The notes under the pieces were generated by a model, which was not told the DNA's origin, searched no databases, and was given only the letters and a program-made list of their open reading frames with translations. Below, one piece after another: positions 3,832-60,131 of a stretch of 64,000 bases of DNA. The position numbers and the translations under genes are program-made. Source of the stretch: an uncultured Alphaproteobacteria bacterium. GTDB taxonomy: Bacteria; Pseudomonadota; Alphaproteobacteria; HIMB59; GCA-002718135. Location of the stretch: positions 48,782 to 112,781 of the forward strand of contig CACJSL010000001.1 of assembly GCA_902596065.1 (NCBI GenBank), written 5' to 3'. Position 1 is the stretch's first letter. Each line of letters begins with the position of its first letter.

Positions 3832-3849
3832 AAATAAAACTTGGTATTA

Positions 3850-4440: not shown

Positions 4441-4481
4441 TTTTAACTATGCTTTAATCTTTTATTTATTTTTGTAAATAA

Positions 4482-4958: not shown

Positions 4959-4964
4959 AATCTT

Positions 4965-5966: not shown

Positions 5967-5968
5967 AA

Positions 5969-9297: not shown

Positions 9298-9332
9298 CTT
9301 ATATTATCCACAAAGGTGTTTTAAACTTTTAT

Positions 9333-9776: not shown

Positions 9777-9793
9777 ACAAGAAAACTAAATAA

Positions 9794-40830: not shown

Positions 40831-41724
40831 TTACTTCATTCCAGTCAGAGTAATTCCTTCGATAAATCTTTTTTGTGCTATTATGAAAGCAACAATTAAG
40901 GGAACCGTGACAGTAACAATTGATGCCATCATTGGTCCAAATTCATCACTATCTATTCCTCCTCTAAATTCTCTAATTCCAAGAGGGGGAGTAAATAGAT
41001 CTCTATTTCCAGTTATAACCATTCTTGGCCAGAAATAATCATTCCAGTGTGCTACAACTGAGAATATTGCAAATGCAAGTAAAGCAGGTATTGCAGTTGG
41101 TAGCATGACTTTCCACACAATAGAATATTCTCCCATTCCATCCATTCTGGCGGCATCAATTAATTCATCTGGAACTGTCATAAAAAATTGTCGCATAAGA
41201 AAAATTCCAAATACAGATATTGTCCAGGGGAGTATTAAGGCGGAATAGGTATCAACTAGCCCGGCCTGGGCCAGCATTACATAAAGAGGAAGTGCAATGC
41301 CGTGCACTGGTATTAGAAGACAAAACAATACCATTGAAAATACAAATTCCCGTCCATAAAACCGGAGTTTTGCAAGCGCATAAGCACAAGGTAAGGCAAC
41401 AAGAACTTGAATTATAAAAATTGATAAAGTTACTATAACTCCATTCATTAAGTATCTAGGAATTGGAGCTTTCTCAAAAGCAAACCAGTAATTATAAATA
41501 TAAGGTTTTGTCGTACATGTTTCTTCGGAATAACCCGTTTTTACACAAACCGGAAATGTTTGAACTTCTTGTGCACCAATTAGCCCACCAGAAATCGATT
41601 GAATTTCTTGTTGAGATTTTAGTGACATTGAAACCATCATATAAAATGGCAGTAAAACAAGGATTGCACCAATTATTAAAATGCCGTGTTTCCAACTCTC
41701 ACCTATATACTGTTTAGCTTGCAT
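40831..41724 (-). CDS. CUT1-type ABC transporter permease (UgpE-like)
   Basis: EAA loop DELIDAARMDGMGEYSIVWKVMLP. Confidence 0.85.
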   Translation of the reverse strand: MQAKQYIGESWKHGILIIGAILVLLPFYMMVSMSLKSQQEIQSISGGLIGAQEVQTFPVCVKTGYSEETCTTKPYIYNYWFAFEKAPIPRYLMNGVIVTLSIFIIQVLVALPCAYALAKLRFYGREFVFSMVLFCLLIPVHGIALPLYVMLAQAGLVDTYSALILPWTISVFGIFLMRQFFMTVPDELIDAARMDGMGEYSIVWKVMLPTAIPALLAFAIFSVVAHWNDYFWPRMVITGNRDLFTPPLGIREFRGGIDSDEFGPMMASIVTVTVPLIVAFIIAQKRFIEGITLTGMK

Positions 41725-42680
41725 TAATAGTGAACCCTCTTCTCAATGATATACCTCTGAAAAAAAGTTAATATCAATATAAAGCCAATAAAAACAACAG
41801 TAATAGCTGCTCCAATACTCGTTAAGTTTTGTTGGATAGCTTTTTCAAAAATTGCATACATCATAACGTAGGTAGTTTTAGAGGGGCCGCCTTTAGTAAG
41901 TATTTCAATTGTATCAAAAACTTGAAATGTTCTGATTGTTGTAATTGTTACTACAAACAAAGTTGTGGGTCCAAGCATTGGCCAAGTTACAAGTTTAAAT
42001 TGCTCCCATGTTGATTTAGCGCCATCCATTTCTGCTGCTTGATATAGTTCACGAGGTATCCCTGTTAGGCCTGCTAAATACAAAACCATATTAAAACCAA
42101 ATGCTTGCCAAATTCCTATAAAACATATCGTCCAAATTGCTGTATTTTTTTGCTTTAGCCAATAAGGAAAATCCATATTATTTGCACATGCTACATGATA
42201 CCAGCTTTGTTGTGAATCTACCCATGGTAACCAATGAAAACCAAAAATAAACTCTCTTGCGCCTCCACAACCATTAGCTAAAAAACTATTCACTATACCG
42301 AGTGTTGGATGAAGAGTGAATTCCCATGCAATAGCCATAGCAAGAAGGGTCGCCATAACAGGAAGAAAGAAAATTGTTTTATAAATATCAGCTCCAAATC
42401 TAAGTGAATTTAAGAGCATTGCTGCACACAAACCAAGTACAACTGAAATAGGTACAACAACTATTACATAGGTTGCTGTGGCCCAAATCATTTTCACATA
42501 TGTTTTTCTTGAAAACATTTTTTCATAATTTTCAAGCCCTATCCATTCAAGAGATTTATTACCTAAATTATAATCAGTAAAAGAAATTCCCCCAGCAAGA
42601 AACAATGGAAAAATTAATATAATAATCATTAGTATTATTGCAGGTGCAATAAACCAAATATGTGCTTTGGAATTATGCAT
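41724..42680 (-). CDS. CUT1-type ABC transporter permease (UgpA-like)
   Basis: EAA loop ELYQAAEMDGAKSTWEQFKLVTWP. Confidence 0.85.
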   Translation of the reverse strand: MHNSKAHIWFIAPAIILMIIILIFPLFLAGGISFTDYNLGNKSLEWIGLENYEKMFSRKTYVKMIWATATYVIVVVPISVVLGLCAAMLLNSLRFGADIYKTIFFLPVMATLLAMAIAWEFTLHPTLGIVNSFLANGCGGAREFIFGFHWLPWVDSQQSWYHVACANNMDFPYWLKQKNTAIWTICFIGIWQAFGFNMVLYLAGLTGIPRELYQAAEMDGAKSTWEQFKLVTWPMLGPTTLFVVTITTIRTFQVFDTIEILTKGGPSKTTYVMMYAIFEKAIQQNLTSIGAAITVVFIGFILILTFFQRYIIEKRVHY

Positions 42681-43806
42681 TATTAAATTGAACCCTTTTA
42701 CCTTCTTGGTTAAACAATAGTGCTTTATTAGGAGCTCTTTTAATGTTTACTGTTGAACCATTAGAAATTTCATGTGTTAATTGAGGTATGCCTCTAACAA
42801 TAATTCTATTCATCCCATCTTCCGTATTTACATGAAAAAAAATATCTGATCCTAAATTTTCTCTGTAAGAAACTTTTGCACTAAAAGTATCTTCATCACT
42901 TTGATTGGAAATTTCTAAATGTTCAGGTCTAATACCAATATTTAACTCTAGATTTGTTTCTGAACTTTTTCTTTTTAAGTTTAGATTTAGTAAGTTTACA
43001 GTTCCGCTTGAATCTGATGAACCTTTAAAAATATTAATTTTAGGACTTCCAACGAATTGAGCCACACTTAGTGAGGAAGGATTATCATATACTTCTTGAG
43101 GAGTATCAAGTTGTAATAAATTTCCATCAATCATAACAGCCATACGAGAAGACATCGTTAATGCCTCCGCCTGATCATGAGTAACGTATACAAAAGTAGT
43201 TTTAAGTGAACTATGAAGTTCAGATAATTCGGAGCGCATATGAACTCTAAGCGCTGCATCTAAATTTGATAACGGTTCATCCATCAAAAAAGCAACAGGC
43301 TCTCTTACCATTGCCCTACCAAGAGCCACTCTTTGTCTTTGACCACCAGATAGTTGACCTGGTTTTCTATCAAGTAGTTCAGAGATTTTAAGTGTTTCAG
43401 AAGTTTTACTAACCAATTGATTTATAGATTCTGTTTTTTGTTTTTTATTCGGAGATAAATTTCCAATTAAAGGCAATCTTTCAAATGAATTGTAATCTCT
43501 AAGCCTTAAAGGAGTTTCTAAATTTCTTCTTACTGAAAGATGAGGATAGAGAGCGTAAGACTGAAACACCATTGCCAAGTCTCTTTCACTAGCTCTAATT
43601 TTATTTACGTTTTTATTATCAATTAAAACATCACCAGAAGTTTGTTGTTCAAGACCGGCTATAATTCGAAGTAAGGTAGATTTGCCACAACCAGATGGGC
43701 CAACTAATGTTAAAAATTCACCGTCTTTTATATCTACACTTAAATCTTTTAATACCTCTGTGGATCCAAATGATTTTGAAATATTTTTAAGTGATATTGT
43801 GCCCAC
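42673..43806 (-). CDS. ABC transporter ATP-binding protein (UgpC/MalK-like)
   Basis: GPSGCGKST, LSGGQRQRVALGRA, FLMDEP, C-terminal regulatory/TOBE domain. Confidence 0.9.
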   Translation of the reverse strand: MGTISLKNISKSFGSTEVLKDLSVDIKDGEFLTLVGPSGCGKSTLLRIIAGLEQQTSGDVLIDNKNVNKIRASERDLAMVFQSYALYPHLSVRRNLETPLRLRDYNSFERLPLIGNLSPNKKQKTESINQLVSKTSETLKISELLDRKPGQLSGGQRQRVALGRAMVREPVAFLMDEPLSNLDAALRVHMRSELSELHSSLKTTFVYVTHDQAEALTMSSRMAVMIDGNLLQLDTPQEVYDNPSSLSVAQFVGSPKINIFKGSSDSSGTVNLLNLNLKRKSSETNLELNIGIRPEHLEISNQSDEDTFSAKVSYRENLGSDIFFHVNTEDGMNRIIVRGIPQLTHEISNGSTVNIKRAPNKALLFNQEGKRVQFNNA

Positions 43807-43969: not shown

Positions 43970-45211
43970 GTGACTGAAAATTTATTAATTAACAATAGAG
44001 AATATCCAAGTATATTTTCAAAGACAGCTATAGTTATTTGTCTTGATGGAAGCCAAAAAGAATATCTTGAAGAGGCATCAAAATCAAATCTGACACCTAA
44101 TCTTGACTCATTAATTGCAAGTGGTCAAAATTTATTAGTTCACAGTGCTATACCTAGCTTCACAAATCCAAATAATATTTCAATTGTGACAGGGCAGCCT
44201 AGTTCTGTTCACGGAATATGTGGTAACTTTTTTTACACTCCTGAAACGGGTGAAGAAGTAATGATGAATGATCCAAAATATATGCGTGCTCCAACAATTT
44301 TTGAAAAATTTTATAATTCTGGCTCAAAAATCGCTCTTGTTACTGCAAAAGATAAACTTAGAACCCTTTTGGGAAATGGTTTAAGTTTTGATAATAATCG
44401 AGCAATATGTTTTTCTGCAGAAAAATCTGATCAGGCAACAAAAGAACTTAATGGTATAGAAAATGTTAATGACTGGTTAGGTATGCCGGTGCCAGAAGTG
44501 TACTCCGAAGGTCTTTCTGAGTTTGTCATGGCCGCTGGAGTAAAACTACTAAAGGAATTTAAACCAGACATTATGTATTTATCTACGACTGACTATATTC
44601 AACACAAGTATGCACCTGGAAATGAAATAGCAAATAAGTTCTATGCAATGTTTGATAAATATATTGGCCTTTTAAATAAAGAAGACGTATCAATGATAGT
44701 AACAGCTGATCATGGAATGAAATCTAAATCAAAAGAAGACGGTTCACCTAACGCGATATTTTTACAAGATTATCTTGATAAAAAATTTGAACCGAACTTA
44801 ACAAAAGTCATCTTACCAATCACAGATCCGTATGTAGTTCATCATGGATCATTAGGTTCATTTGCTACAATTTATCTTGAAGATAAAACTAAAGTCAACG
44901 ATGTTATTGAATCAATTAAAGCAATTAAAGATATAGAAGTAGTCTTAACTAAAGACGAAGGTTGCTCAACATATAATCTTCCTCCAGATAGAATGGGAGA
45001 TATAATATGCATGTCTTCTGAATTTATGACAATTGGATCCTCTTTAGATAAACATAATCTTTCTGGATTAAATGAGCCTTTGCGTTCCCATGGTGGTTTA
45101 CATGAGCGAGAAGTACCTTTTATTTCAAATTTAAAAATACAAAATTTAAATAATGAAAAACAGTTATATAATTATGATGCATTCTATTATGCAATCAATG
45201 GAGCTTTATGA
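43970..45211 (+). CDS. phnA: Phosphonoacetate hydrolase (alkaline phosphatase superfamily)
   Basis: [35 protein letters not shown] (Thr nucleophile region), [44 protein letters not shown]. These closely match what I recall of Pseudomonas fluorescens PhnA. GTG start. Confidence 0.9.
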
Positions 45212-46650
45212 TGGAAAAGAAAATTATTAATGAAGCTATGCGCATTGCTGGCAAAAAAGTAAATTTTGAAAAAACAATTGATGTTGAATATCCATTTACA
45301 GGAGAAGTAATTGGTACAGTTCCTGCAGGAAATGCTGAGCATGCAAAACAAGCTCTTGAAATTGCTGCAAACTATCAACCTAAGTTGACACGATATGAAA
45401 GACAAAAAATACTTCAAACCGCAGCTGAGGTACTTGTAAAAAGAAAAGAAGAGATTTCTGACATCATTACCTTAGAACTTGGAATTTCAAAACAAGACTC
45501 ATTGTATGAAGTAGGCAGAGCATTTGATGTTTTTTCTTTAACCGCACAACTTTGTATTCATGATGACGGAGAAATTTTTTCTTGTGATTTAACTCCACAC
45601 GGAAAAGCGAGAAAAATATTTACAATAAGAGAACCATTAACAGCAATTTCGGCAATTACACCATTTAATCACCCTTTAAATATGGTGGCACATAAAATTG
45701 CACCTTCAATTGCAACGAATAATTGTACTGTTTGTAAGCAGACTGAGTTAACTCCATTAACAGCAATGGTTCTTGCTGATGTTTTGTATGAAGCTGGTTT
45801 GCCGCCAGAAATGTTTTCTGTTGTTACAGGATGGCCGCAAGATATCGGCTCTGAAATGATAAAGAATCCAAATATTGATCTTATTACTTTTACTGGAAGT
45901 GTTGGTGTTGGAAAACTAATTGCTGAACAAGCAGGATACAAAAGAACTGTCCTTGAACTTGGTGGAAATGATCCTTTAATAGTTTTAAATGATTTAGATC
46001 CAGATGATTTAAAGAAAGCAGTTGAATTAGCAGTTACTGGAGCAACAAAAAATTCAGGACAACGATGTACAGCTGTTAAAAGAATACTTTTGCAAGAAAA
46101 AATTGCTGATCAGTTTGTTGAAATGGCTTTGGAAAGAGCAAAAAAAATTAAATTTGGTGATCCAATGAGTATGGAAACTGACTTAGGCACTGTTGTTAAT
46201 GCTCAAGCAGCGGAATTATTTGATAAAAGAGTTTCAATGGCAGAGGCAGATGGTGCAAAAATCTTATATCACCCTGGAAGAAAAGGTGCGTTATTGCCTC
46301 CTATAGTAATTGATAATGTTGATCCAAAAAGTGAACTTGTTCTTGAAGAAACATTTGGCCCAGTTATCCCTATTATTAGGGTTCCCAATGATGATGAATC
46401 GGTAATCAAGATTTCAAACTCAACTGCTTTTGGATTATCTTCAGGTGTATGCACCAATAATTTTATGAGAGCTAAAAAATATATTCAAGGTCTTAATGTT
46501 GGAACTGTAAATATCTGGGAAGTACCTGGTTACAGAATTGAAATGTCCCCTTTTGGAGGAATTAAAGATTCTGGCTTAGGCTACAAAGAAGGCGTAATAG
46601 AAGCGATGAAGAGCTTTACTAATGTAAAAACATTCTCACTTCCTTGGTAG
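45208..46650 (+). CDS. phnY: Phosphonoacetaldehyde dehydrogenase (ALDH superfamily)
   Basis: ELGGNDP catalytic Glu, GQRCTAVKR catalytic Cys; ATGA overlap with phnA. Confidence 0.8.
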
Positions 46651-46819: not shown

Positions 46820-48073
46820 ATGAGAAAATTAATTACAGGATTAGCAGCCGTATTAGCTTTTGGTTTCTATGGTTCTGTTAATTCAGCGAAGTCTATAGAA
46901 ATAGAAGTAGCTTATCCTTATTCAGGTTTATTTGATGTTACCTATCAAGCTATTATGCCTGAGTTTGAAAAAGCTCATCCAGATATTCAAGTAAAATTTA
47001 GAGCAACTTATGAAAACTATGAAGATGCTACTGCTACAATTTTAAGAGAAGCAACTTCTGGTAATCTACCAGATGTTACAATGCAGGGTCTTAACAGACA
47101 AGCTCCTCTAGTAGACAAAGGTATTGCAAAATCTTTAGAGCCATTTATTGCAAAAGAAGCTGATTTTGAAAAAGATGGTTATCATGCTGCAATGTTAAGT
47201 CTTTCAACATTTGGAGGAGAGGTTTATGGTTTGCCATTCTCTGTATCAACTCCTGTTGGATATTATAACATGGATTTATTAGCTGAAGCTGGCATAGACA
47301 GCATCCCAACTAACTGGGATGAAGTTATTGATGCTTGTGGAAAATTAGAGGCAGCTGGAAAAGGTACTTTATATTTTGGTTGGAACATTACAGGTAACTG
47401 GTTCCACCAAGCATTAATGCATACTCAAAATGTAAAAATTGTTGAAGATGGAAAAGTAAACTTAGGTGGAGACGCTGGTTTAGCAACATTACAACAAATG
47501 CACGATATTATGAGTGGATGTAACATGCCTAACTATTCAATTGCTGATGGTCAAGCTGCATTTAATGCAGGCACGATCGGTATGATGTTCTGGTCAACTT
47601 CAAGCTTAGGTTCAGTAAATGCTGCAAAAGCAGATTTCGTACTTAAGACAGCTCCATTCCCTGGAATGGCAGGTGTTAATAATGGAACCCCAGCAAGATT
47701 ACCAGCAGGTGGAAATGCAGCAATGTTAACTTCTACTTCTGATGATCCAGCAAGAGTAGACGCAGCATGGACATTCTTGAAGTTCATTACTTCTGGTATT
47801 GGAGCAGCATTAGTTGCTGAGACTACTGGTTATGTTCCACCAAACAAAGCAGCTAACGATTTATTAGGTGATTTCTATAGTGCAAATCCAAATAAACTTA
47901 CTGCGGTAGAACAGCTTCCACTCTTAGCAGACTGGTTTGCATATCCTGGTGAAAACGGACTAGCAATCACTCAAGTAATTTATGATTACACTGAAGAAAT
48001 TGCCACAGGAAGTGCTGATGATATGGCAGATCTTCAAGAAGAAATGATGGAAGAAATCAACGATCTTTTATAA
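46820..48073 (+). CDS. ABC transporter substrate-binding protein, family 1 (UgpB-like)
   Basis: Signal peptide, family 1 SBP architecture, strong SD GGAGGA. Likely partner of the permeases at 40831-43806. Confidence 0.85.
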   Translation: MRKLITGLAAVLAFGFYGSVNSAKSIEIEVAYPYSGLFDVTYQAIMPEFEKAHPDIQVKFRATYENYEDATATILREATSGNLPDVTMQGLNRQAPLVDKGIAKSLEPFIAKEADFEKDGYHAAMLSLSTFGGEVYGLPFSVSTPVGYYNMDLLAEAGIDSIPTNWDEVIDACGKLEAAGKGTLYFGWNITGNWFHQALMHTQNVKIVEDGKVNLGGDAGLATLQQMHDIMSGCNMPNYSIADGQAAFNAGTIGMMFWSTSSLGSVNAAKADFVLKTAPFPGMAGVNNGTPARLPAGGNAAMLTSTSDDPARVDAAWTFLKFITSGIGAALVAETTGYVPPNKAANDLLGDFYSANPNKLTAVEQLPLLADWFAYPGENGLAITQVIYDYTEEIATGSADDMADLQEEMMEEINDLL

Positions 48074-48157: not shown

Positions 48158-49237
48158 ATGCCTCTAACTACAACTACAATAGGTGCTTATCCAAAACCTA
48201 AACAAACTCCAATTCAAGATTGGTTTTTAGGCACTAAATCTGAAGAAGAAAGAAAAGCTTCAAAAGGATTATTATCAAACTGGTCACCCGGTGCATATGA
48301 AAAAGCATTAGAGTCTGCTGGAGAAGAAGCGGAGAAATTATTTTTAGAAGCAATTAAAGAAGTTATTACTGATCAAGTAAATTCAGGCATTGATGTTCCA
48401 ACTGATGGAGAAGTACGAAGAGAAAGTTATGTTTTATATCAATGTCGTTTTTTAAATGGTGTAAGCTTTAAGGAAGTAACACATAGGTCAGTTAGACAAG
48501 GCGCGTTTGAAGCAGATCTTCCAACAATAGTAGCGCCTATTTCAAGTAAAGAAATTCGCTTGCATTTAGATTGGAAAAGCGCGCAACAATTTACAAAAAA
48601 TCCTGTAAAAATTACTCTACCAGGACCTATGACAATTACAGATTCAATTGCTAATAACTATTATGATGACATGAAAAAACTAGGTTTTGATCTAGCACTT
48701 GCTTTAAACAAAGAAGTGAAAGCGCTTGTAGATGCTGGGTGTAAATACATTCAAATTGATGAACCTGTATTTGCAAGAAAACCTGAAGAAGCAAATTCTT
48801 ATGGTATGGAAAATTTAGAAAGAATGATGCACGGGATTCCAAAAGAGGTACAAAGAGTGTGCCATATTTGTTGCGGCTATCCAAACTCTCTTGACTCCGA
48901 GGGTTACAAAAAAGCAGACTTAGATGCTTATGATAGGATTGCTACTTTAGTAGATGATTCTACGATTGATGAAGTGTCATTAGAAGACTCACATAGACAC
49001 AATGATTTAAATCTTTTAGAAAAATTTACTAAAACAAAAGTTATTTTTGGATTTATTGATATTGCCAAAAGCAGAATGGAGTCAGTAGAAGAAGTAAGAA
49101 GTCGTATGAAAGACTCTTTAGAACATATTGACGAACATAGATTGATAGCTGCTCCAGATTGTGGTTTAGGTTTCTTTACAAGAGAACAAGCTATTGAAAA
49201 AATGTCAATATTATCTAAGGCTGCAAAATCAATTTAG
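48158..49237 (+). CDS. Single-domain cobalamin-independent methionine synthase (MetE C-terminal)-like Zn enzyme
   Basis: TDGEVRRE, IQIDEP, H236-I-C238, E276 (SLEDSHR), C335 (APDCGLGF); SD AGGGAGA. Confidence 0.8.
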   Translation: MPLTTTTIGAYPKPKQTPIQDWFLGTKSEEERKASKGLLSNWSPGAYEKALESAGEEAEKLFLEAIKEVITDQVNSGIDVPTDGEVRRESYVLYQCRFLNGVSFKEVTHRSVRQGAFEADLPTIVAPISSKEIRLHLDWKSAQQFTKNPVKITLPGPMTITDSIANNYYDDMKKLGFDLALALNKEVKALVDAGCKYIQIDEPVFARKPEEANSYGMENLERMMHGIPKEVQRVCHICCGYPNSLDSEGYKKADLDAYDRIATLVDDSTIDEVSLEDSHRHNDLNLLEKFTKTKVIFGFIDIAKSRMESVEEVRSRMKDSLEHIDEHRLIAAPDCGLGFFTREQAIEKMSILSKAAKSI

Positions 49238-49241
49238 TAGA

Positions 49242-50354
49242 ATGTGGAATTATTATAATCCTGTTGATGTTGTTTTTGGTGAAAATAAATTTTCAGAGAT
49301 ACACAAAATATTAGAAAATAAAAAATACGTCGTTGTTACCCATCCTGAAGAAATTTTTAAAAAATATACTGATCAATTAAATACATCATCTAATCCTCCC
49401 CTTATGGTTATGACAGAAGTACAACCTAATCCAGATTATTTAGATATTCTTACTCTATTAAAAAATTTTGCTTCTATAGCAAAAGAAGTTGATCATGTAG
49501 TTGCTATAGGAGGTGGATCTGTTACCGATACAGCAAAAGCTTTAGCAGCATTTAAAGGCAATGAAAATCTTTTAACAGATTTTGTTCGCAATAAAAAAAC
49601 TCCTTATGTGGATGACCCTATAAGTATTATTGCTGTGCCTACAACTTCTGGAACATCAAGTGAATTAACTTGTTGGGCTACGATTTGGGATAAAGAAAAA
49701 AATGGAAAGCTATCTTTAGCACACAAGAGCCTTTATCCTTTAAAGGCAATTATAGATCCAGTTATCATGTTAGATAAACCCAAAGGATTAACAATTTCAA
49801 CAGGTCTTGATGCCCTTTCTCATTCAATGGAAAGTATTTGGAATATTAATGCAAACCCAGTTTCTGCTATGCATGGAATAGTGGGCTCTCAATTAATTAT
49901 TGAAAACCTTCCTTTATTAGCTAATGATTTAAAAAACATCACATTAAGAAGTAATGTTGCTCGCGCTTGCGTTCATGCGGGTTTAGCTTTTTCTAATACT
50001 AAGACAGCCATTGCACATAATATTTCTTATCCCATTACTCTTAATTATGGTATTCAACATGGAATTGCGTGTTCTTTTAGCTTGCCTATGATTTTAAGAA
50101 GTATGCTTGATATTAATGATGAAGCTGAAAATCGTTTAAAAATGATTTTTAATGATGATTTAATTAGTTCAGCAACAAAACTTGAATCAATTTTACGACA
50201 ATTAAATATTCCTCTTAATCTTAATGAATTAAAAATCAATAAAGACGAGTGGAATAAAATTGTTGGTGATGCATTTATGGGCGAAAGAGGTAAAAATTTT
50301 TTAGGTAATAAAAATGCTTTTGATAAAGCAGTTGATGAATCAAATTTTTTTTAA
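49242..50354 (+). CDS. Group III iron-containing alcohol dehydrogenase (phosphonoacetaldehyde reductase-like)
   Basis: GGGSVTDTAKA, DALSHSMES, AHNISYP motifs. ATG at 49242 lies 5 nt after the upstream stop; the track start at 49194 is TTG inside the upstream gene. Confidence 0.82.
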   Translation: MWNYYNPVDVVFGENKFSEIHKILENKKYVVVTHPEEIFKKYTDQLNTSSNPPLMVMTEVQPNPDYLDILTLLKNFASIAKEVDHVVAIGGGSVTDTAKALAAFKGNENLLTDFVRNKKTPYVDDPISIIAVPTTSGTSSELTCWATIWDKEKNGKLSLAHKSLYPLKAIIDPVIMLDKPKGLTISTGLDALSHSMESIWNINANPVSAMHGIVGSQLIIENLPLLANDLKNITLRSNVARACVHAGLAFSNTKTAIAHNISYPITLNYGIQHGIACSFSLPMILRSMLDINDEAENRLKMIFNDDLISSATKLESILRQLNIPLNLNELKINKDEWNKIVGDAFMGERGKNFLGNKNAFDKAVDESNFF

Positions 50355-50355
50355 A

Positions 50356-51168
50356 TTAAAATTTTTTAGTTGTCTCAAACCAATTGATATTATCTTTTAA
50401 AAAATCTTCAGTATGGACTACTAGTGAGTTTTTATTAATTAATATTACATTATAATTTGGATCAGTATTGGCCGTTCCCAATCTATAGTTTTTTGAAAAA
50501 TTGGGCACCAATGGAGACCAAGTACTTCTCGGCGCACTAAAAGGTATGTTTAAATAATTTCCTGATACTGTAATATGCTGATGACCAAAAAAAATATGTT
50601 GAATAATTTTTTTAAATTTAATTAATATATCTTTAAACTCATCTCCTTGTTGTAAACCAATATAATCACTAGTGGGCTCTCCTAGGGGTAAAGGATTATG
50701 ATGCATAAAAAGATAAACTTGTTTATTATTATCTGAAGCATTTTCTAGAGTATTTATAAGCCAACTTTGTCTGTTGTTGCAAAAATGCCCTTGATGGGTA
50801 TTTGATAAATTTGTATCTAAAAAAATAAAACGTTTATCTTCAATGTCTTCAAAGTATTGAATAAAACCATTTTCATCTAAAGGTATTTTTGTAAATATTT
50901 GTTTAAACTGTTCTCTATCATCATGATTGCCCATAAGCAATTTTGGAAACAAATGTTTTGGTATTTTGGAATTTAATAATATTTCATTTAATTTATTATA
51001 AGATTCACTATCCCCGTCATGCGTTAAATCTCCTGATATAACAAATAGCTTTGAGTCTAAATGATTGTTGCAAATATGTTGAAGTGCTAGTGAAAATCTC
51101 TCTTTAGCATCATGTTCAAAAAGTTTATCTGGAGAAATATGAGGATCTGATAAGTGGATTATTTTCAT
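50356..51168 (-). CDS. Class III metallophosphodiesterase (GpdQ/CpdA family)
   Basis: HLSDPH, SGDLTHDG, GNHDD, FMHHNPLPLG, FGHQH. These five metallophosphoesterase blocks are spaced as in GpdQ. Confidence 0.85.
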   Translation of the reverse strand: MKIIHLSDPHISPDKLFEHDAKERFSLALQHICNNHLDSKLFVISGDLTHDGDSESYNKLNEILLNSKIPKHLFPKLLMGNHDDREQFKQIFTKIPLDENGFIQYFEDIEDKRFIFLDTNLSNTHQGHFCNNRQSWLINTLENASDNNKQVYLFMHHNPLPLGEPTSDYIGLQQGDEFKDILIKFKKIIQHIFFGHQHITVSGNYLNIPFSAPRSTWSPLVPNFSKNYRLGTANTDPNYNVILINKNSLVVHTEDFLKDNINWFETTKKF

Positions 51169-51194
51169 ATTTAAAAAATATTTTAAATGAATAA

Positions 51195-51824
51195 TTAAAG
51201 TTTTGTTTTAAAAAAAAGATACTTATTAAATTCTTTTTTTAAATCGATGCTAACACGGGCATGTACTTTCCCTTGTTTGCCCATAAAAGAACTTTTCTTT
51301 TGAACAGGGAAAACACCCTCATGCCAAATATTGGGATGAATATATAAACCTTTTGATCCATCAAAATAAAATGCCTTAAAATCTTCTGCTTGAATATCAT
51401 CGCCAGGTAACGCAAGAGGTGAAATAAATGGACCTCTTTCAGAGGGAAAAAATAACTGCCCTCCATCTGGGTGGTAATTAACATGCCATATATAAATCTC
51501 TTCTGGCTCACTATATTCTGTATTGTTTTCAATATTTTCTGGAGGGGCAGAATAGCCTAAAATATATTTTCCATCTATTTCATACTCACTATTATGTTGC
51601 ACAGCATTATTTTGCCCATAAAGAGTTGAGCCTTCCCACCAAGTATCAAACGCACCTTTGGTATAGCCCGCTTCATTACCTGTTCCTTCATCAATTTCTC
51701 GCCAACCTTGTTTTGGCCAAGTTACAATTTCAACATCACTGTTTTCAAATGAGTCTATTAAATAACCATATCCTTTAAGAGTTTCATTTGTAGCTTTGAC
51801 TAAGGGGATTTCAATGGCCTGCAT
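51195..51824 (-). CDS. Ureidoglycolate lyase (AllA) family-like cupin, extended form
   Basis: N-terminal LKGYGYLID, central YHPDGGQLFFP and C-terminal GLYIHPNIWHEGVFP align with blocks I recall from AllA (FSAYGDVIE, RHPLGTQAFIP, VNYHRNVWHHPLF). Confidence 0.55.
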   Translation of the reverse strand: MQAIEIPLVKATNETLKGYGYLIDSFENSDVEIVTWPKQGWREIDEGTGNEAGYTKGAFDTWWEGSTLYGQNNAVQHNSEYEIDGKYILGYSAPPENIENNTEYSEPEEIYIWHVNYHPDGGQLFFPSERGPFISPLALPGDDIQAEDFKAFYFDGSKGLYIHPNIWHEGVFPVQKKSSFMGKQGKVHARVSIDLKKEFNKYLFFKTKL

Positions 51825-51835
51825 AAATATTACTT

Positions 51836-52936
51836 TTAATTAATTTTAATTTGTAATTCATTTACAACTTCTTTTATGGCCTTAATGGTATCATGCATAT
51901 CATTGTCATCTAAATTTCCAATACATCCAATACGAAAAGTATCAGCAACAGTAAGCTTGCCTGGATAAATCAAAAAATCTTTATTACTCAAAGCATCATA
52001 AAATTCTTCAAAATTAAAATTTGAATTTTGAGGCTGCATAAATGTTATAATTATTGGCGCTTGTAATTCATTTGACAGTAATTGTTTAAAACCTATTTCT
52101 TTCATACCATCACAAATTATTTTGCAATTATTTGAATACCTTTTATGCCTTCCTTCAACCCCCCCTTCTTTTGAATGTTCATTTATAGCTTGTTGAAAGG
52201 CAGCTAAAACATGTGTGGGAGGAGTAAAACGCCACTGTTTATTTTTTTCCATCGCCTGCCACTGGTCATATAGATCTAAACTTAAAGAATGTGCATTTCC
52301 TTTTGCTTTTTCGATAATATTATTTTTAACTAAAATAAAGCCTACTCCTGGAACTCCTTCTAAACATTTATTGGAAGAAGCAGCAACAGCATCAAATGCA
52401 ATTGTTTTACTACTAAGAGGAAGAGCGCCAAAAGCACTCATAGCATCAATAAATAATGATAAATTTTTTTTTGCTACTAAGTCAGATATTTTTTGAATAG
52501 GATTTAATATTCCTGAGGTTGTTTCGCAGTAAACAGCAAACACATGAGTTAAATCAGTATTTGAATCTATGATGTTTTCAATTTCATCTAAATCATGTTG
52601 TTCATGTTCCGCAACTTCATAAGCAATACATTCTCTACCAACATAGTCACACATTTTTTTCATACGGTGACCATATGCTCCATTAATTAATATTAATATT
52701 TTTGCATCTTTAGATGTGAGAGAGCCAACCATTGATTCTACTGCAAATGTTCCGCTACCTTGCATTGGAACACATTGGTAATTATTTTCACCATCAATAA
52801 GTTTTACAAGAGACTCACGAATAGAATGGTTCAGATCAATAAATTTTTGATCTCGCGAACCCCAATCATGAAGCATGGCTTCTTTGGTTGTCATGGAGGT
52901 AGTAAGTGGTCCAGGTGTAAGAAGTTTTTTATCCAT
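51836..52936 (-). CDS. phnW: 2-aminoethylphosphonate:pyruvate aminotransferase
   Basis: LLTPGPLTTS N-terminus, class V aminotransferase fold, PLP Lys in SSNKCLEGVPGVGF. Confidence 0.9.
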   Translation of the reverse strand: MDKKLLTPGPLTTSMTTKEAMLHDWGSRDQKFIDLNHSIRESLVKLIDGENNYQCVPMQGSGTFAVESMVGSLTSKDAKILILINGAYGHRMKKMCDYVGRECIAYEVAEHEQHDLDEIENIIDSNTDLTHVFAVYCETTSGILNPIQKISDLVAKKNLSLFIDAMSAFGALPLSSKTIAFDAVAASSNKCLEGVPGVGFILVKNNIIEKAKGNAHSLSLDLYDQWQAMEKNKQWRFTPPTHVLAAFQQAINEHSKEGGVEGRHKRYSNNCKIICDGMKEIGFKQLLSNELQAPIIITFMQPQNSNFNFEEFYDALSNKDFLIYPGKLTVADTFRIGCIGNLDDNDMHDTIKAIKEVVNELQIKIN

Positions 52937-53034
52937 ATTCTTAATTGAGTTAACTATTTAATTCTTAATTAGCTCACTAGCAATTAAATAAAAAATTGAT
53001 TTGCAATTTTTCTTGAAAGTTGTATTTTTTCTAA

Positions 53035-53607
53035 ATGGAAAATATTGTAGATCAACTTCTAAATCTTTTAGTTACAAAGGGGGGAGATATACAATATGGA
53101 AATGAAGATGTTACTCAATTAGAGCATGCCTTACAGTGCGCAGAATTAGCTGAACAACACAATTTACCAGGCCCAACAATAGCAGCTGCTTTATTACATG
53201 ATATTGGCCATCTTTTATATGAAGACAAGGATCCAATTCATGAAGGGAAAGATGGACGTCATGAAAACTTAGGAGCTGATTATTTATCGCAATACTTTGA
53301 TACTGATGTGACACAGCCTATTCGAGCTCATGTAGATTCCAAAAGATATTTAGCAACAGTTGAAGAAGGTTATTATGATCTTCTCTCAGAGGCCTCCAAA
53401 CTTTCACTCGCTGTTCAGGGCGGTCCATTTACCAAAGAGGAGGCAAAAAAATTTATAGATAAACCATTTATGAAGGAAGCTGTAGAAATGAGGCGTTTCG
53501 ATGATATGGCAAAAATTTTAAATAAAAAAACCCCTGATATAAATTATTTTAGACCATATGTAGAAAAAGCACAAAATTCATTTAATTTAAAAAACATTAA
53601 GAATTAA
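53035..53607 (+). CDS. phnZ: PhnZ-type HD-domain di-iron oxygenase (phosphonate-degradation-associated HD protein)
   Basis: LEHALQC, AALLHDIGH, RHENLGADYL, RAHVDSKRYL, RRFDDMAK give the H/HD/H/H/D ligand pattern of the PhnZ/MIOX-like family. Confidence 0.75.
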   Translation: MENIVDQLLNLLVTKGGDIQYGNEDVTQLEHALQCAELAEQHNLPGPTIAAALLHDIGHLLYEDKDPIHEGKDGRHENLGADYLSQYFDTDVTQPIRAHVDSKRYLATVEEGYYDLLSEASKLSLAVQGGPFTKEEAKKFIDKPFMKEAVEMRRFDDMAKILNKKTPDINYFRPYVEKAQNSFNLKNIKN

Positions 53608-54493: not shown

Positions 54494-55537
54494 TTAGTTT
54501 TTTGGCTCAGTTTTGCCATCATATCTTTTTTTCCATTCAGCAACTATACGATCTTTGTTTGCCGCTGCCCAAACAAAATCATTATCAATTAATTTTGCTT
54601 GCACTTCGTCATAAAAATCAGGAAGTTCTGGATCTTTAGTTACTTTAGAAGGATCAGCAATAATTGATTGTCTTTGCCCGAATAATTTCATTCCTTCTCC
54701 CAAAGTCCAATCCATTAATGTTTTTGCATCTTCAAGATTATCTGTTCCTTCCATTATAGCCACTACTTGCATTTCCCAACCAATTCCTTCTTCAGGAATA
54801 ATCATATCAATTGGAGCACCAGCTTTAATAACTTTAATTGCTCTACCAGGCCATGAGATACCAATTGCAAATTCACCAGCCCCTGCTTGCTTACAAGGTT
54901 TAGAACCAGAGTGAGTATACACACCTATATTTTCATGTAGTGCATCCATATACTCCCACGCTTTATCTTCACCCCATATTTGCATCCAACTAGATGCATC
55001 CAAGAAACCAGTTCCAGAGGAAGCTGGATTTGGCATAGAAATATGACCTTTATAAATTGGATCAGTTAACTCTGCCCAAGTTGTTGGTTTAGGTAAACCA
55101 AGTTTTTCTGCCTCAATGCGGTTCCAGCAAATACAACCTGCCCAGCCATAATTTCCAACCCAAGTTACAGGTGCAGATTTATCAACATATCGTTGATCAA
55201 TCGCATCCATACCTTTTGGAGTATATTCAACAAACATACCTTCTGCTTCCATATTTAAAGCAACAGTTGCAGCCATCTCAAATAAGAAATCAGCTTGTGG
55301 GTTATCTTTTTCTGCCATCATTTTTGCTGCCATTGTTCCAGTTGATTCACGAACAACGTTAACTTTTATATCGGGATGATCTTTTTGAAATTCATCCATG
55401 TAATATTTAAGATTATCTGCATCAGTACTAGAATATACTAAAAGCTCACCAGCATTAGCTAGATAGCTAAATGTAGATAAAGATATAAAAATTAAAACAG
55501 CACTTAGTGTGTTTAAAATTTTTTTTATTAAAAACAT
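54494..55537 (-). CDS. Putative 2-aminoethylphosphonate ABC transporter substrate-binding protein (PhnS2/AepX-like)
   Basis: Signal peptide, Fe3+/2-AEP-type SBP fold; divergent from the ATPase/permease genes. Confidence 0.78.
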   Translation of the reverse strand: MFLIKKILNTLSAVLIFISLSTFSYLANAGELLVYSSTDADNLKYYMDEFQKDHPDIKVNVVRESTGTMAAKMMAEKDNPQADFLFEMAATVALNMEAEGMFVEYTPKGMDAIDQRYVDKSAPVTWVGNYGWAGCICWNRIEAEKLGLPKPTTWAELTDPIYKGHISMPNPASSGTGFLDASSWMQIWGEDKAWEYMDALHENIGVYTHSGSKPCKQAGAGEFAIGISWPGRAIKVIKAGAPIDMIIPEEGIGWEMQVVAIMEGTDNLEDAKTLMDWTLGEGMKLFGQRQSIIADPSKVTKDPELPDFYDEVQAKLIDNDFVWAAANKDRIVAEWKKRYDGKTEPKN

Positions 55538-55736
55538 AAAATTACCTCCAAATTTAAATGTTATCTTTTATTTAAAAAATGTGATTAAATTTAAACATAT
55601 ATATGACCTATTTGTTAACAATTAATTACAAATTTTGATATTATTTTGAGTATAAGAAGATATAGTATTTTTCAATTTGGCCAAAAACTAATATATTTTA
55701 CTAATACATTTGATTAACTAAAATTTATAAAATTTT

Positions 55737-56816
55737 ATGACTGAACAAAAAAACAATACTTATCTTGCAGTTAATAATTTATCTAAATCTTTTGGTAATT
55801 TTGAAGCCATTAAAAATATAGGAATAGATATAAAAGAAGGTGAGTTTGTTTGTTTTCTTGGACCTTCTGGTTGCGGTAAAACAACTTTACTGCGATGTAT
55901 AGCAGGATTGGAAACACAAACTTCTGGATCTGTTATTCAAAAAGATATTGATATTTCACATGAACCTCCATCCAATAGAGATTTTGGAATTGTCTTTCAG
56001 TCTTATGCATTATTTCCAAACCTTTCTGTTTTTTCTAACATTTCATATGGATTAATAAATAATAAATGGAAAAAAGATGACATCAAAAAAAGAGTAGATG
56101 AATTGCTTGATCTGGTTAATCTTACAGAGCATGCATCAAAGTATCCAAGTCAATTATCTGGTGGGGAACAACAACGAGTAGCTTTAGCTAGAGCTCTTGC
56201 TACATCACCTGGATTATTATTGCTTGATGAGCCTCTTTCCGCACTAGATGCAAAAGTAAGAGTTTTTCTAAGAAAACAAATAAGAGATTTGCAAAGAAAA
56301 CTTGGAGTAACTACTATTATGGTTACTCATGACCAAGAGGAAGCCCAAACAATGGCGGATAGAATATTTGTTATGAATGAGGGTGAAATTATTCAGTCTG
56401 GAACACCTAGTGAAATTTATACAAAAGCTAATTCACCTTTTATTGCTTCTTTTATTGGAAGTATGAATTTTATACCTGCAACAATTGATAGTTCTAAAAA
56501 AGTGAAGTGTAACAATATTGAAATAAATTGTGATACAAGCTCTTTTACAGAAAATGATTCTGTGCAATTAGCTGTAAGACCTGAAGAAATTTATTTTAAA
56601 CAAGAAAACCAAGATGATAATGTTATATCTGCTACAATAAAAGAAATAGAATTTTTGGGTTCTTTTCAACGAGTCTATTTTGAAGCAAAGAGTTTTAGTA
56701 ATGAGTTGATCATAGTAGATGTCCCAAGTGCAAACGCTAGAAAAATTAAATTAATTATTGACGAAGAAATAAATTTGTATTTTTCCAAACAAGATGCACG
56801 AATTTATTCAACTTAA
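55737..56816 (+). CDS. Putative 2-aminoethylphosphonate ABC transporter ATP-binding protein
   Basis: GPSGCGKTT, LSGGEQQRVALARA, LLLDEP, TOBE-like C-terminus. Confidence 0.85.
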   Translation: MTEQKNNTYLAVNNLSKSFGNFEAIKNIGIDIKEGEFVCFLGPSGCGKTTLLRCIAGLETQTSGSVIQKDIDISHEPPSNRDFGIVFQSYALFPNLSVFSNISYGLINNKWKKDDIKKRVDELLDLVNLTEHASKYPSQLSGGEQQRVALARALATSPGLLLLDEPLSALDAKVRVFLRKQIRDLQRKLGVTTIMVTHDQEEAQTMADRIFVMNEGEIIQSGTPSEIYTKANSPFIASFIGSMNFIPATIDSSKKVKCNNIEINCDTSSFTENDSVQLAVRPEEIYFKQENQDDNVISATIKEIEFLGSFQRVYFEAKSFSNELIIVDVPSANARKIKLIIDEEINLYFSKQDARIYST

Positions 56817-56819
56817 ATT

Positions 56820-58523
56820 ATGAATTTATTAAAGTTTGGCAATATTCGTAGAGGAAAAGACTCAAGTGATAGAGTTGGGCAATTTATGCTCATATCATAT
56901 ATCATTCTTTTTTTAATATTCTTAGTTTTACCCTTAGTAGCATTAATTTCAAAAAGTTTACAAAATAAAGAGGGTGAATTTATAGGTTTGGCAAACTATA
57001 ATTTATATCTTCAAGAACCAGCATTATTTCAATCACTTTTTAATAGTTTGTTTGTTGCTATTAGCTCTACAATTATAGTTGTTATATTAGCCTTTTTATT
57101 TTCATATGCGCTTACGCGTACATGTATGCCTTTTAAGGGATTTTTTAAATTAATAGCTTTAATACCTTTATTAAGTCCTTCTATTCTAGCGGCTATTGCA
57201 CTTGTGTATTGGTTTGGAAATCAAGGAGTTTTAAAAGAAGTTCTACTAGGGAAATCCATATATGGCCCAATTGGTATTATTATGGCTTCAGTCTATTGGA
57301 CTTTTCCGCATGCTCTTATAATTTTAACCACTTCTTTATCCTTATCAGACTCGCGATTATATGAGGCAGCTGAAGTATTAAAAACTTCTAAACTTAGAGC
57401 ATTTTTTACTATTACAATTCCTGGAGCAAGATATGGAATTATTAGTACTGCTTTTGTAATTTTTACCCAAGTGTTTACAGACTTTGGTGTTCCCAAAGTT
57501 ATTGGAGGAAATTACAATGTGCTTGCTACAGATATTTATAAAGAAGTTGTTGGTATGCAGAATTTTCAAATGGGAGCTGTAATCTCAATGGTTTTATTAG
57601 TTCCTGCCATGATCGCTTTTTTTATTGATCGTTATTCAAGAAAAAAACAAATTTCTTTGCTTACTGCCAGGTCAGTTGTTTTTAAGCCAAAAAAACATTT
57701 TAAAGTTGATATGATTATGCTCGCCTTTTGTTCGGCGCTAGCATTAATCATTATATTGATGATTGGGATGGCACAATATGGTGCAATAGTAAAATTTTGG
57801 CCTTACAATTTAAATCTTACTTTAAAAAATTATAATTTTGAAGTTGCTGGACTTGGGTGGGATTCTTTTTATAATTCAGTCCGATTAGCTTTTTATGCAG
57901 CAGTATTTGGGACCATTATTATTTTTGTAGGCGCTTATTTAATTGAAAAATTAAGAATTAATGAAGGGACAAGAAATGTAGTACAATTTTTTGCTCTAAT
58001 GCCCATGGCTGTACCTGGATTAGTATTAGGTCTAGCTTACATTTTTTTCTTTAACGCAAAAGACAATCCATTAAACTTTATTTATGCAACTATGATTATT
58101 TTAGTAGTTAATACTATTGTTCATTTTTATACAGTATCCCACTTAACAGCTGTAACAGCTTTAAAACAAATGGATAAAGAATTTGAATCTGTTTCCTTAT
58201 CTTTAAAAATACCTATTTATAAAATGTTTTGGCGTGTTACCTTGCCCGTTTGTTTGCCTCCTATCTTTGATGTTTCTATTTATTTATTTGTTAATGCTAT
58301 GACAACAGTTTCGGGTGTAATCTTTCTTTACTCTTATGATACTACCTTAGCGTCAGTCTCAGCTATTCATTTGGATGAACAGGGTGAAGTTGCTAAAGCG
58401 GCAGCTATGGCCATGTTAATCGTATATGTTTCTATTGCTGTGCGATTAACGCATACAATTATTACAAAAAAAATATTGAGAAAAACTCAGGCCTGGCGCT
58501 ATAATATTATTGATACAAGTTAA
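56820..58523 (+). CDS. Putative 2-aminoethylphosphonate ABC transporter permease (fused two-domain)
   Basis: 567 aa with duplicated permease domains, as in single-permease PhnU2/AepW-type systems. Confidence 0.85.
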   Translation: MNLLKFGNIRRGKDSSDRVGQFMLISYIILFLIFLVLPLVALISKSLQNKEGEFIGLANYNLYLQEPALFQSLFNSLFVAISSTIIVVILAFLFSYALTRTCMPFKGFFKLIALIPLLSPSILAAIALVYWFGNQGVLKEVLLGKSIYGPIGIIMASVYWTFPHALIILTTSLSLSDSRLYEAAEVLKTSKLRAFFTITIPGARYGIISTAFVIFTQVFTDFGVPKVIGGNYNVLATDIYKEVVGMQNFQMGAVISMVLLVPAMIAFFIDRYSRKKQISLLTARSVVFKPKKHFKVDMIMLAFCSALALIIILMIGMAQYGAIVKFWPYNLNLTLKNYNFEVAGLGWDSFYNSVRLAFYAAVFGTIIIFVGAYLIEKLRINEGTRNVVQFFALMPMAVPGLVLGLAYIFFFNAKDNPLNFIYATMIILVVNTIVHFYTVSHLTAVTALKQMDKEFESVSLSLKIPIYKMFWRVTLPVCLPPIFDVSIYLFVNAMTTVSGVIFLYSYDTTLASVSAIHLDEQGEVAKAAAMAMLIVYVSIAVRLTHTIITKKILRKTQAWRYNIIDTS

Positions 58524-58547: not shown

Positions 58548-59075
58548 ATGGCAATGCAATTAATTGATTATGTTCAACCAAAAGATGTAAAAGGAAAAAT
58601 ATTTTTAACCTGTTTTCCAGGAAGAAATGGAGAAAAAATTTCTTTTGAGGAAAATATTTTTTTAAAAGAACTAAATAATTTTTCCTCTCTAAATTCTAAT
58701 ACGGTCGTAACTTTGGTAGAGGATAATGAAATTGAAAAACTTTGTGATAAAAAGTTTTTTGTTCGAAAAATTTATTCTCATAATTTTAAATGGATACATA
58801 TGCCAATTGTAGATTTAAAATCCCCTGATCATAAATTTATGGATAAATGGCAAACAACAAAAGTATTATTAAAAAATGATTTAATAGAAGGAAAGAATAT
58901 TATTTTGCATTGTATGGGAGGCAAAGGACGTACAGGTACAATTGCCGCTATTCTCTTAATTGAGTTTGGGGAAAAACATGAAGAGGCTATAAAAATTGTT
59001 AGAGAAAAAAGAAAAGGCGCTATTGAAACAAAAGAACAAGAAGATTTTATTTTTTCTTATAGGCCTGTAGCTTAG
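58548..59075 (+). CDS. Cys-based phosphatase, dual-specificity/PTP-like (CX5R)
   Basis: HCMGGKGRTGT P-loop (HCX5R[ST]); 24 nt after the permease stop. Confidence 0.75.
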   Translation: MAMQLIDYVQPKDVKGKIFLTCFPGRNGEKISFEENIFLKELNNFSSLNSNTVVTLVEDNEIEKLCDKKFFVRKIYSHNFKWIHMPIVDLKSPDHKFMDKWQTTKVLLKNDLIEGKNIILHCMGGKGRTGTIAAILLIEFGEKHEEAIKIVREKRKGAIETKEQEDFIFSYRPVA

Positions 59076-60124: not shown

Positions 60125-60131
60125 AAATTAA

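Follow-up and report, generated by a model that had tools for sequence, protein, structure and literature searches.

A class III metallophosphoesterase in the phnW operon of SAR11: a candidate enzyme for freeing phosphonates from their esters

A large part of the dissolved organic phosphorus in the sea consists of phosphonates, most of which are esterified to lipids, glycans and polysaccharides. To our knowledge, all known pathways that cleave the carbon-phosphorus (C-P) bond require the free acid. SAR11 and roseobacters are the most abundant heterotrophs of the surface ocean. What enzyme detaches phosphonates from marine organic matter, to which they are ester-linked, has been acknowledged as unknown; for this release, Sosa et al. 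(2017) pointed to enzymes of the PhoD type or of the alkaline-phosphatase superfamily (PMC5649143). This question is raised by a locus in a 64,000-nt stretch of DNA from an uncultured Alphaproteobacteria bacterium (contig CACJSL010000001.1, positions 48,782 to 112,781; hereafter the window, whose first base is position 1). There, the gene for a small metallophosphoesterase (50356-51168, minus strand; hereafter the esterase) lies in one operon with phnW, which encodes 2-aminoethylphosphonate (AEP):pyruvate transaminase. What does a phosphoesterase do in an operon for AEP degradation? Judging from its context, we regard it as a candidate for the enzyme that frees phosphonates from their esters. 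In PMC10590968, PMC12366243, PMC13576164 and the accessible literature, coverage of which was incomplete, we found no description of a metallophosphoesterase as a component of phnW or AEP clusters. What is new is its fixed place in the AEP-degradation operon, together with the parallel joining of related importer-esterase modules to C-P lyase operons.

The esterase and its place beside phnW

The gene and the five sequence blocks of its product are as follows.

50356..51168, minus strand: class III (GpdQ/SpdA-like) binuclear metallophosphoesterase, ATG start, 270 aa, assigned by PF00149, motifs and fold
51139..51156, minus strand: motif I, HLSDPH, residues 5-10, with metal ligands D8 and H10
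51013..51033, minus strand: motif II, GDLTHDG, residues 46-52, with bridging ligand D47
50917..50931, minus strand: motif III, GNHDD, residues 80-84, with N81 and H82; verified base by base
50692..50706, minus strand: motif IV, MHHNP, residues 155-159
50575..50586, minus strand: motif V, GHQH, residues 195-198; verified base by base

All five blocks quoted in an earlier note on this stretch were present in the translation of 50356-51168(-), and the esterase carries the elements that mark the metallophosphoesterase superfamily (D-x-H, GD, GNH[D/E], H and GHxH) in that order. The Pfam Metallophos model (PF00149) matched it with 52.9 bits against a cutoff of 21.5, over profile positions 1-190 of 191, which is far beyond chance. 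Residues D8, H10, D47, N81, H82, H156, H157, H196 and H198 were unchanged across 12 homologues, the lowest at 44% identity.

Motif I begins at residue 5 and, in the AlphaFold2 model (predicted local distance difference test score, pLDDT, 86.4), strand beta-1 takes up residues 2-7, leaving no room for a signal peptide. The earlier note had proposed to look for such a peptide; there is none. Because the position of motif I precludes it, the esterase is soluble and cytoplasmic, and therefore its substrate must be imported.

Comparison of the model with solved structures by Foldseek gave GpdQ as the best match in the PDB (template modelling score, TM, 0.81, full length), followed by Rv0805 (TM 0.73-0.79), both with a probability of 1.00. 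A phmmer search against solved structures also placed GpdQ at the top (E = 4e-16, residues 40-207 only) and Rv0805 next. GpdQ from Enterobacter aerogenes (PDB 2dxl, 2zo9, 3d03) resembles the esterase in its full-length fold, including the C-terminal cap, in the five motifs and in the metal ligands, and both proteins are cytoplasmic. They differ in that gpdQ lies within a homologous operon for an ATP-binding cassette (ABC) importer of the CUT1 family, whereas the SAR11 esterase gene lies in the phnW operon, and in that a conserved C-terminal segment of the SAR11 protein (SAPRST...PNF...NYNV...H-x-x-DF...W) can be aligned only poorly with GpdQ. In vitro, GpdQ hydrolyses phosphonate monoesters besides diesters. 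The designation "GpdQ-type diesterase" in the earlier note is apt in so far as the protein is a cytoplasmic class III enzyme with GpdQ as its best fold match, but it does not extend to orthology. We rejected the esterase as a GpdQ orthologue in view of the 23% identity in the structural alignment, the partial phmmer alignment and the place of GpdQ as the most divergent sequence and outgroup of the tree described below.

The best curated sequence model for the esterase was that of SpdA (NF050112, equivalog cutoff 400), which it matched over its full length with 183.1 bits; the CpdA/Icc model (NF008359, cutoff 225) gave 62.6 bits, and neither curated-family cutoff was reached. The SpdA score is not specific, because diesterases that are clearly coupled to importers score 188-248 bits with the same model, and GpdQ 113 bits. 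SpdA of Sinorhizobium meliloti is likewise a cytoplasmic class III diesterase of similar size; spdA, however, is located at an adenylate-cyclase/clr locus (PMC4222275), whereas the SAR11 esterase belongs to a phosphonate operon.

To place the family, we used a neighbour-joining tree rooted on GpdQ, which diverges far more than any other sequence gathered. Diesterases encoded directly after an SBP1-type binding protein formed the sister group to a clade that holds the SAR11 esterases and proteins 44-46% identical to them. When the library was clustered at 50% identity, the SAR11 esterases were reduced to one representative, with only four full-length clusters at 40-46% identity and 109 clusters with E <= 1e-30. 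The esterase group is a compact, distinct and new subfamily of a well-known enzyme class.

The esterase gene is the last of three in its operon, and the two genes ahead of it are listed here.

51836..52936, minus strand: phnW, 2-aminoethylphosphonate:pyruvate transaminase, operon gene 1 (NF010006, 523.6 bits, cutoff 296; TIGR02326, 475 bits, cutoff 400.8)
51195..51824, minus strand: AllA-like protein (ureidoglycolate-lyase fold), middle operon gene (PF04115, 39 bits, residues 112-181 only)

The order on the minus strand is phnW, AllA-like gene and esterase, with gaps of 11 and 26 nt. The coordinates agree with the claim of the earlier note that the esterase is co-oriented with the other two genes and convergent with an alcohol dehydrogenase gene across 1 nt: the stop codons of the dehydrogenase (50352-50354) and the esterase (50356-50358) are separated by one base, 50355. 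A scan of 49000-53200 detected no terminators between the operon genes, and promoter-like sites in that interval were not enriched (16 found, 22.3 expected from shuffles).

To examine conservation, we analysed the best 80 of 333 loci from a genome scan, 76 of them SAR11-type; open reading frames (ORFs) in these loci were labelled by BLAST against the window proteins and by a limited number of Pfam scans. The proteins of the window locus are 99-100% identical to those of single-cell genomes of uncultured Alphaproteobacteria, and the related loci include named Pelagibacterales; the organism is SAR11. Upstream sequence sufficed for this comparison in 73 SAR11 loci: all of them have the AllA-like gene ahead of the esterase in the same orientation, and 72 have phnW there as well. 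The gap between the AllA-like gene and the esterase was 19-37 nt in 62 loci (usually 23 nt) and 118 nt in one more; in the remaining 10, a transporter cassette of 3.2-6.3 kb was inserted between them. Three of these loci (L003, L005 and L006, about 3737-9739) contained a complete ugpBAEC-like operon ending in a 481-aa double-GDPD glycerophosphodiesterase, and seven (L064, L066-L072; about 6841-9853) a different CUT1 binding protein with two permeases, divergent from the esterase. The short stretch that separates the AllA-like gene from the esterase gene is a hot spot for insertions.

Importer-coupled relatives and C-P lyase operons

Relatives of the esterase outside SAR11 are closely tied to importers. 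All eight plasmid relatives sampled (32-40% identity; Tistrella, Phaeobacter, Cupriavidus, plasmid pAKD18, Phyllobacterium, Alloyangia, Pelagibacterium and S. meliloti) were encoded in or beside an ABC importer operon, usually in the order ATPase, permease, permease, binding protein, diesterase. GpdQ itself had been linked to a Ugp-like transporter in the earlier note, and a Klebsiella locus bears this out: the gene for a homologue 94.5% identical to the 164-residue GpdQ fragment queried lies inside a CUT1 ABC operon.

The importer-coupled diesterases of Phaeobacter, Tistrella, Cupriavidus and pAKD18, which are uncharacterised, are 35-40% identical to the SAR11 esterase, and their importers are of the same CUT1 type as one in the window. 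Compared with the Phaeobacter operon that ends in the diesterase gene, the binding protein SBP1 of the window and its UgpE, UgpA and UgpC are 66, 63, 61 and 51% identical, respectively. In those operons the diesterase gene is the last and often occurs in tandem, whereas the SAR11 gene is single and has moved into the phnW operon. A similar logic is known from ugpBAEC-ugpQ of Escherichia coli, in which a CUT1 importer and a cytoplasmic diesterase release a usable phosphorus compound. UgpQ, however, has the GDPD fold (PF03009) and is unrelated to the SAR11 esterase, and some SAR11 genomes have both.

We also examined the best 80 of 111 matches from a scan of metagenomes. Starting from the closest relatives outside SAR11, it yielded 28 contigs of about 57% G+C with ugpC-A-E, an SBP1-type gene and one or two tandem esterase genes, and their SBP1-type proteins were 62-66% identical to SBP1 of the window. 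Among the 10 importer-esterase contigs with at least 4 kb of downstream sequence, four run into phosphonate genes. The clearest is L134 (3515-16034), where ugpCAE, SBP1, esterase 1, esterase 2 and phnF-G-H-I-J-K-L-M are co-directional and tightly packed. On L157 and L161 the module is followed by phnC, phnD, phnE and phnE, then by phnF and phnGHI, and on L162 it lies directly upstream of phnCDE. Matches to "PhnM" were discounted as probable generic amidohydrolases and not counted as phosphonate context. Two of the closest non-SAR11 relatives, L077 (46% identity) and L106 (40%), have the esterase gene adjoining phnG or phnF; other neighbourhoods of the 40-46% clade (L088, L096, L097, L110, L115 and others) are heterogeneous and include a chemotaxis receptor, a DAO-family oxidase, an aldehyde dehydrogenase and SelO. 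On Roseobacter-like contigs (L134, L146, L138 and others), the tandem esterase paralogues after SBP1 belong to different clades of the family.

Taken together, one diesterase family, in one case with the same importer type, has been recruited by two chemically unrelated phosphonate pathways: the hydrolytic PhnW/PhnY/PhnA route in SAR11 and C-P lyase in roseobacter-like bacteria. The need for a free phosphonate is common to both.

The phosphonate cluster around the operon

The remaining genes of the cluster in the window are the following.

40831..43806, minus strand: Ugp-like ABC importer, with ATPase at 42673-43806 and permeases at 41724-42680 and 40831-41724 (ABC_tran/TOBE_2, BPD_transp_1); divergent from phnA
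43970..45211, plus strand: phnA, phosphonoacetate hydrolase (TIGR02335, 467.2 bits, cutoff 407.55)
45208..46650, plus strand: phnY, phosphonoacetaldehyde dehydrogenase (TIGR03250, 788.2 bits, cutoff 635.65)
46820..48073, plus strand: SBP1, CUT1-family periplasmic binding protein of the Ugp-like importer (PF01547, PF13416)
48158..49237, plus strand: MetE-like protein (cobalamin-independent methionine-synthase catalytic domain; PF01717, 121 bits), in the variable cassette
49242..50354, plus strand: PhpC-type iron-containing alcohol dehydrogenase, probable 2-hydroxyethylphosphonate (HEP) dehydrogenase (TIGR03405, 377 bits, just below the cutoff of 423.7)
53035..53607, plus strand: PhnZ-like HD-domain phosphonate oxygenase (TIGR03276, 197 bits, just below the cutoff of 214.6); divergent from phnW
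54494..58523: AepX/AepS-type ABC importer, with binding protein at 54494-55537 on the minus strand (PF13343), ATPase at 55737-56816 on the plus strand and fused permease at 56820-58523 on the plus strand
58548-59075, plus strand, and 59072-60794, minus strand: dual-specificity-phosphatase-like gene and PiT/PhoU-like pair

PhnW, PhnY and PhnA each score above their curated cutoffs, as is expected of a hydrolytic AEP catabolic cluster. These neighbours, on which the earlier note had relied, are therefore real, and so is the CUT1 ABC system, the binding protein of which is UgpB-like. We found no PEP-mutase (phosphoenolpyruvate mutase) motif, EDKx5NS, in any frame of the window; the cluster is thus catabolic, and we rejected a biosynthetic phosphonate cluster. 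C-P lyase genes are also absent from the window. A role in anti-phage defence was rejected as well, as the sole PADLOC match scored 15.8 bits.

The island holds two importers. The Ugp-like system lies within 7 kb of the esterase gene, in other transcription units. SBP1 matched the UgpB model with only 63 bits (cutoff 411), and its best matches among solved structures were weak (E ~1e-17) and were sugar- and glycerol-3-phosphate-binding proteins, uninformative on the ligand. PF13343 is also found in AepX and AepS, which bind AEP (PMC8316502), and the importer that carries it is probably the route for free AEP. As a separate importer for free AEP is present, the CUT1 system plausibly carries something larger.

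The genes beyond the esterase vary among the SAR11 loci. The dehydrogenase, MetE-like gene, SBP1, PhnY and PhnA follow it in 52 of 67 loci, the dehydrogenase, PhnY and PhnA in 4, and PhnY and PhnA only in 11, including L001 and L002, whose esterase is 99% identical to that of the window. The place of the esterase in the phnW unit is fixed, and the cassette with the Ugp-like system is optional. The presence of this cassette goes together with that of the PhpC-type HEP dehydrogenase and the MetE-like gene, and not with that of phnW. PhpC-type dehydrogenases have been shown to convert HEP to phosphonoacetaldehyde and are reported to be rare in AEP clusters (PMC13576164); in SAR11, the gene is inside the phnW cluster in 56 of 67 loci, and a single SAR11 locus thus seems to serve the catabolism of both HEP and AEP. 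For the dehydrogenase of the window, the ORF tool chose a TTG start at 49194, with a 44-nt overlap with the MetE-like gene; the ATG at 49242 yields 370 aa, as in homologues.

Comparison of window positions 38094-60124 with the two single-cell genomes L001 and L002 revealed a mosaic. The MFS/EamA side and the side with phnW, AllA-like gene, esterase and PiT are 98-100% identical; between these flanks PhnY is 90% and PhnA 81% identical, and SBP1, the MetE-like gene, the dehydrogenase and UgpCAE are extra in the window. As this pattern suggests, SAR11 lineages may have exchanged the cassette by recombination. Genes of the methyl-transfer type accompany the CUT1 cassette: the MetE-like gene in the window (48158-49237), a homocysteine S-methyltransferase gene in L003 (10820-11725) and, between the esterase and the dehydrogenase of most other SAR11 loci, a gene for a 368-aa protein that gave a weak methyltransferase match (10793-11899 in L066) and is absent from the window. 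A methyltransferase as a recurring partner of the diesterase in SAR11, Phaeobacter and pAKD18 was considered and dropped, since the three are not homologous to each other.

The AllA-like protein scored far below the cutoff with all NCBIfam AllA models, and its best Foldseek match was AllA (TM 0.5-0.63, 15% identity). We considered this fold as a clue to the alcohol moiety of the substrate and rejected it, since sugar-epimerase cupins matched with a TM of only ~0.27, which is not meaningful. A protein search returned 5072 homologues, nearly all from marine metagenomes; a Paraburkholderia homologue (50% identity) is not encoded near phnW.

On the other side of phnW, the PhnZ-like gene is conserved in SAR11 loci. 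No PhnY*-type 2-oxoglutarate dioxygenase partner is encoded near it. In most related SAR11 loci it adjoins the dual-specificity-phosphatase-like gene and the PiT/PhoU-like pair; in the window, the AepX/AepS-type importer intervenes. The 98-nt divergent region between phnW and phnZ contains a 10-nt direct repeat, ATTCTTAATT, in two copies with 24-nt spacing (52937-52970). It could be a regulator site, or a product of chance in this AT-rich DNA (window G+C ~30%), from which it is indistinguishable.

Proposed function, rival readings and meaning

We tentatively propose, from the context of the gene, that the esterase may hydrolyse imported phosphonate monoesters to free AEP or HEP, a reading to which we give a little less than an even chance. 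The imported compound would be a small hydrophilic monoester of AEP or HEP with glycerol, a sugar or a comparable alcohol; its source would be the head groups of phosphonolipids, phosphonoglycans or dissolved organic matter. It would enter through the CUT1 (Ugp-like) ABC system where this is present, or through another carrier. Fold and ligands suggest that a binuclear centre (D8, H10, D47, N81, H157, H196 and H198, by homology to GpdQ) activates water, which would attack the phosphorus and cleave the single P-O-C ester bond to give free phosphonate and an alcohol. Free AEP would then serve as the substrate of PhnW, or free HEP as that of the PhpC-type dehydrogenase, and transamination of the former and oxidation of the latter would both yield phosphonoacetaldehyde; PhnY would convert this to phosphonoacetate and PhnA the latter to acetate and phosphate, the enzyme identities being taken from curated models. 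Glycerol-AEP from phosphonolipids is one possible substrate among several. Esters of AEP, HEP or methylphosphonate with sugars would suit a CUT1 binding protein just as well, and since the cassette travels with the HEP dehydrogenase, HEP esters are at least as likely a cargo as AEP esters. The same reaction is known from the phosphonate monoester hydrolases (PMH/PEH) of Rhizobium leguminosarum and Burkholderia caryophylli; these, however, belong to the alkaline-phosphatase superfamily, with an unrelated fold, a formylglycine nucleophile and no sequence relationship to the esterase. It is these hydrolases that had earlier been put forward for the release of phosphonates from marine organic matter (PMC5649143).

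Several observations weigh against this proposal. The specificity of class III diesterases is not predictable from sequence, according to the authors of the SpdA study (PMC4222275). The CUT1 cassette is absent from 15 of 67 SAR11 loci, including the two whose esterase is 99% identical to that of the window, and the esterase therefore cannot depend on the Ugp-like importer. The SAR11-like contig L086 has phnW and the AllA-like gene (7733-8371) without the esterase, PhnY and PhnA, and with a HAD-family hydrolase and GlpABC-like genes nearby; the AllA-like gene is the more constant partner of phnW, and the model that we favour leaves its role unexplained. Six of the 10 importer-esterase contigs with long downstream sequence have no clear phn genes, L146 having only a PhnM-like amidohydrolase, and no phn genes were found downstream in the Phaeobacter and Tistrella plasmid loci. 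Finally, the island holds phosphorus-acquisition genes (the PiT phosphate transporter, the PhoU-like protein and the phosphatase, with ugpBAEC-GDPD beside the esterase in some genomes), and the genes could lie together because phosphorus stress regulates them in common, and not because they serve one pathway.

The earlier note had pictured a phosphonate ester brought in by the Ugp-like system, cut by a GpdQ-type diesterase and passed to PhnW/PhnY/PhnA. This interpretation is partly supported. A cytoplasmic diesterase fixed in the phnW operon, with the AllA-like gene upstream in 73 of 73 loci, stands, as does the presence of an importer of the same kind as those partnered with diesterases; reliance on that importer and orthology to GpdQ do not.

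The regulatory argument leads to the view that the esterase is a general scavenger, which would cleave imported phosphate diesters to monoesters and sit beside phn genes through phosphorus-island regulation. GpdQ, its best structural match, is a glycerophosphodiesterase. The relatives lie in Ugp-like operons, the one in Cupriavidus with a GlpR/DeoR regulator and a HAD hydrolase, and in Alloyangia, Pelagibacterium and S. meliloti they are found beside PhoX or alkaline-phosphatase-family genes, which in the latter two are not PhnA-like. The make-up of the SAR11 island, with PiT, PhoU-like protein and phosphatase, and with ugpBAEC-GDPD beside the esterase in L003, L005 and L006, also agrees with scavenging. 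Yet the esterase stays with phnW and the AllA-like gene amid variable cassettes, usually 23 nt downstream of the latter, and it is retained in genomes with a true GDPD, which argues for a different substrate. No monoesterase that would complete the hydrolysis of a diester is fixed in the operon, and the L134 module is co-directional with phnF through phnM. We consider a general scavenger rather unlikely. Improbable, in our view, is a cyclic-phosphate diesterase that would act, like SpdA or Rv0805, on 2',3'-cyclic nucleotides from RNA breakdown, or replace PhnP on 5-phosphoribosyl 1,2-cyclic phosphate. Some of the evidence for it also tells against our proposal: SpdA is the best curated model (183 bits over the full length, against 63 for CpdA), and a PhnP-like role would fit the adjacency to phnG or phnF in L077 and L106, where the esterase could replace PhnP beside C-P lyase. 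Rv0805 is moreover the second-best structural match. Nevertheless, the score is less than half the SpdA cutoff of 400 and is equalled or passed by importer-linked diesterases that are not SpdA (188-248 bits); the PhnW/PhnY/PhnA route yields no cyclic phosphate, and the window lacks C-P lyase genes. Housekeeping RNA turnover would not be expected to be locked to phnW, or to importers in eight of eight sampled relatives.

A signalling role as a 3',5'-cAMP/cGMP (cyclic adenosine or guanosine monophosphate) diesterase of the CpdA/Icc type appears highly improbable. Some sources label homologues CpdA or Icc and the CpdA model does match weakly, but the 62.6 bits fall far short of 225, no cyclase or CRP-type gene is nearby, and the operon and importer context is metabolic. 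We give hardly any weight to a lipid-remodelling phospholipase C like PlcP. PlcP is a manganese metallophosphoesterase that occurs in SAR11, is induced by phosphorus stress and strips the cell's own phospholipid head groups, and plcP lies in an operon with a glycosyltransferase gene, agt (PMC8231724). No glycosyltransferase is adjacent to the esterase in the window, nor among the Pfam-scanned neighbours in related SAR11 loci. The nearest relatives of the esterase by sequence and fold are soluble class III diesterases, the comparison with PlcP being one of operon context alone.

Returning to the hydrolysis of phosphonate monoesters, a broader form of this proposal is that the esterase and its importer-linked relatives might constitute a dedicated family of phosphonate-monoester hydrolases, which would be paired with a specific CUT1 importer in SAR11 and roseobacters and would perform the missing first step by which both the substrate-specific PhnW/PhnY/PhnA route and the broad C-P lyase route could draw on ester-bound phosphonates. 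This we regard as possible but doubtful. The candidate lends itself to direct testing, being small and soluble and having a defined binding protein as its partner. If it proved to be a general diester scavenger instead, it would be an ordinary phosphorus-stress gene. If the proposal is true, the phosphonate pathways of SAR11 and roseobacters would gain an entry step, the gene would serve as a marker for the use of esterified phosphonates in metagenomes, and the finding would have a bearing on the aerobic production of methane and ethylene from esters of methylphosphonate and HEP.

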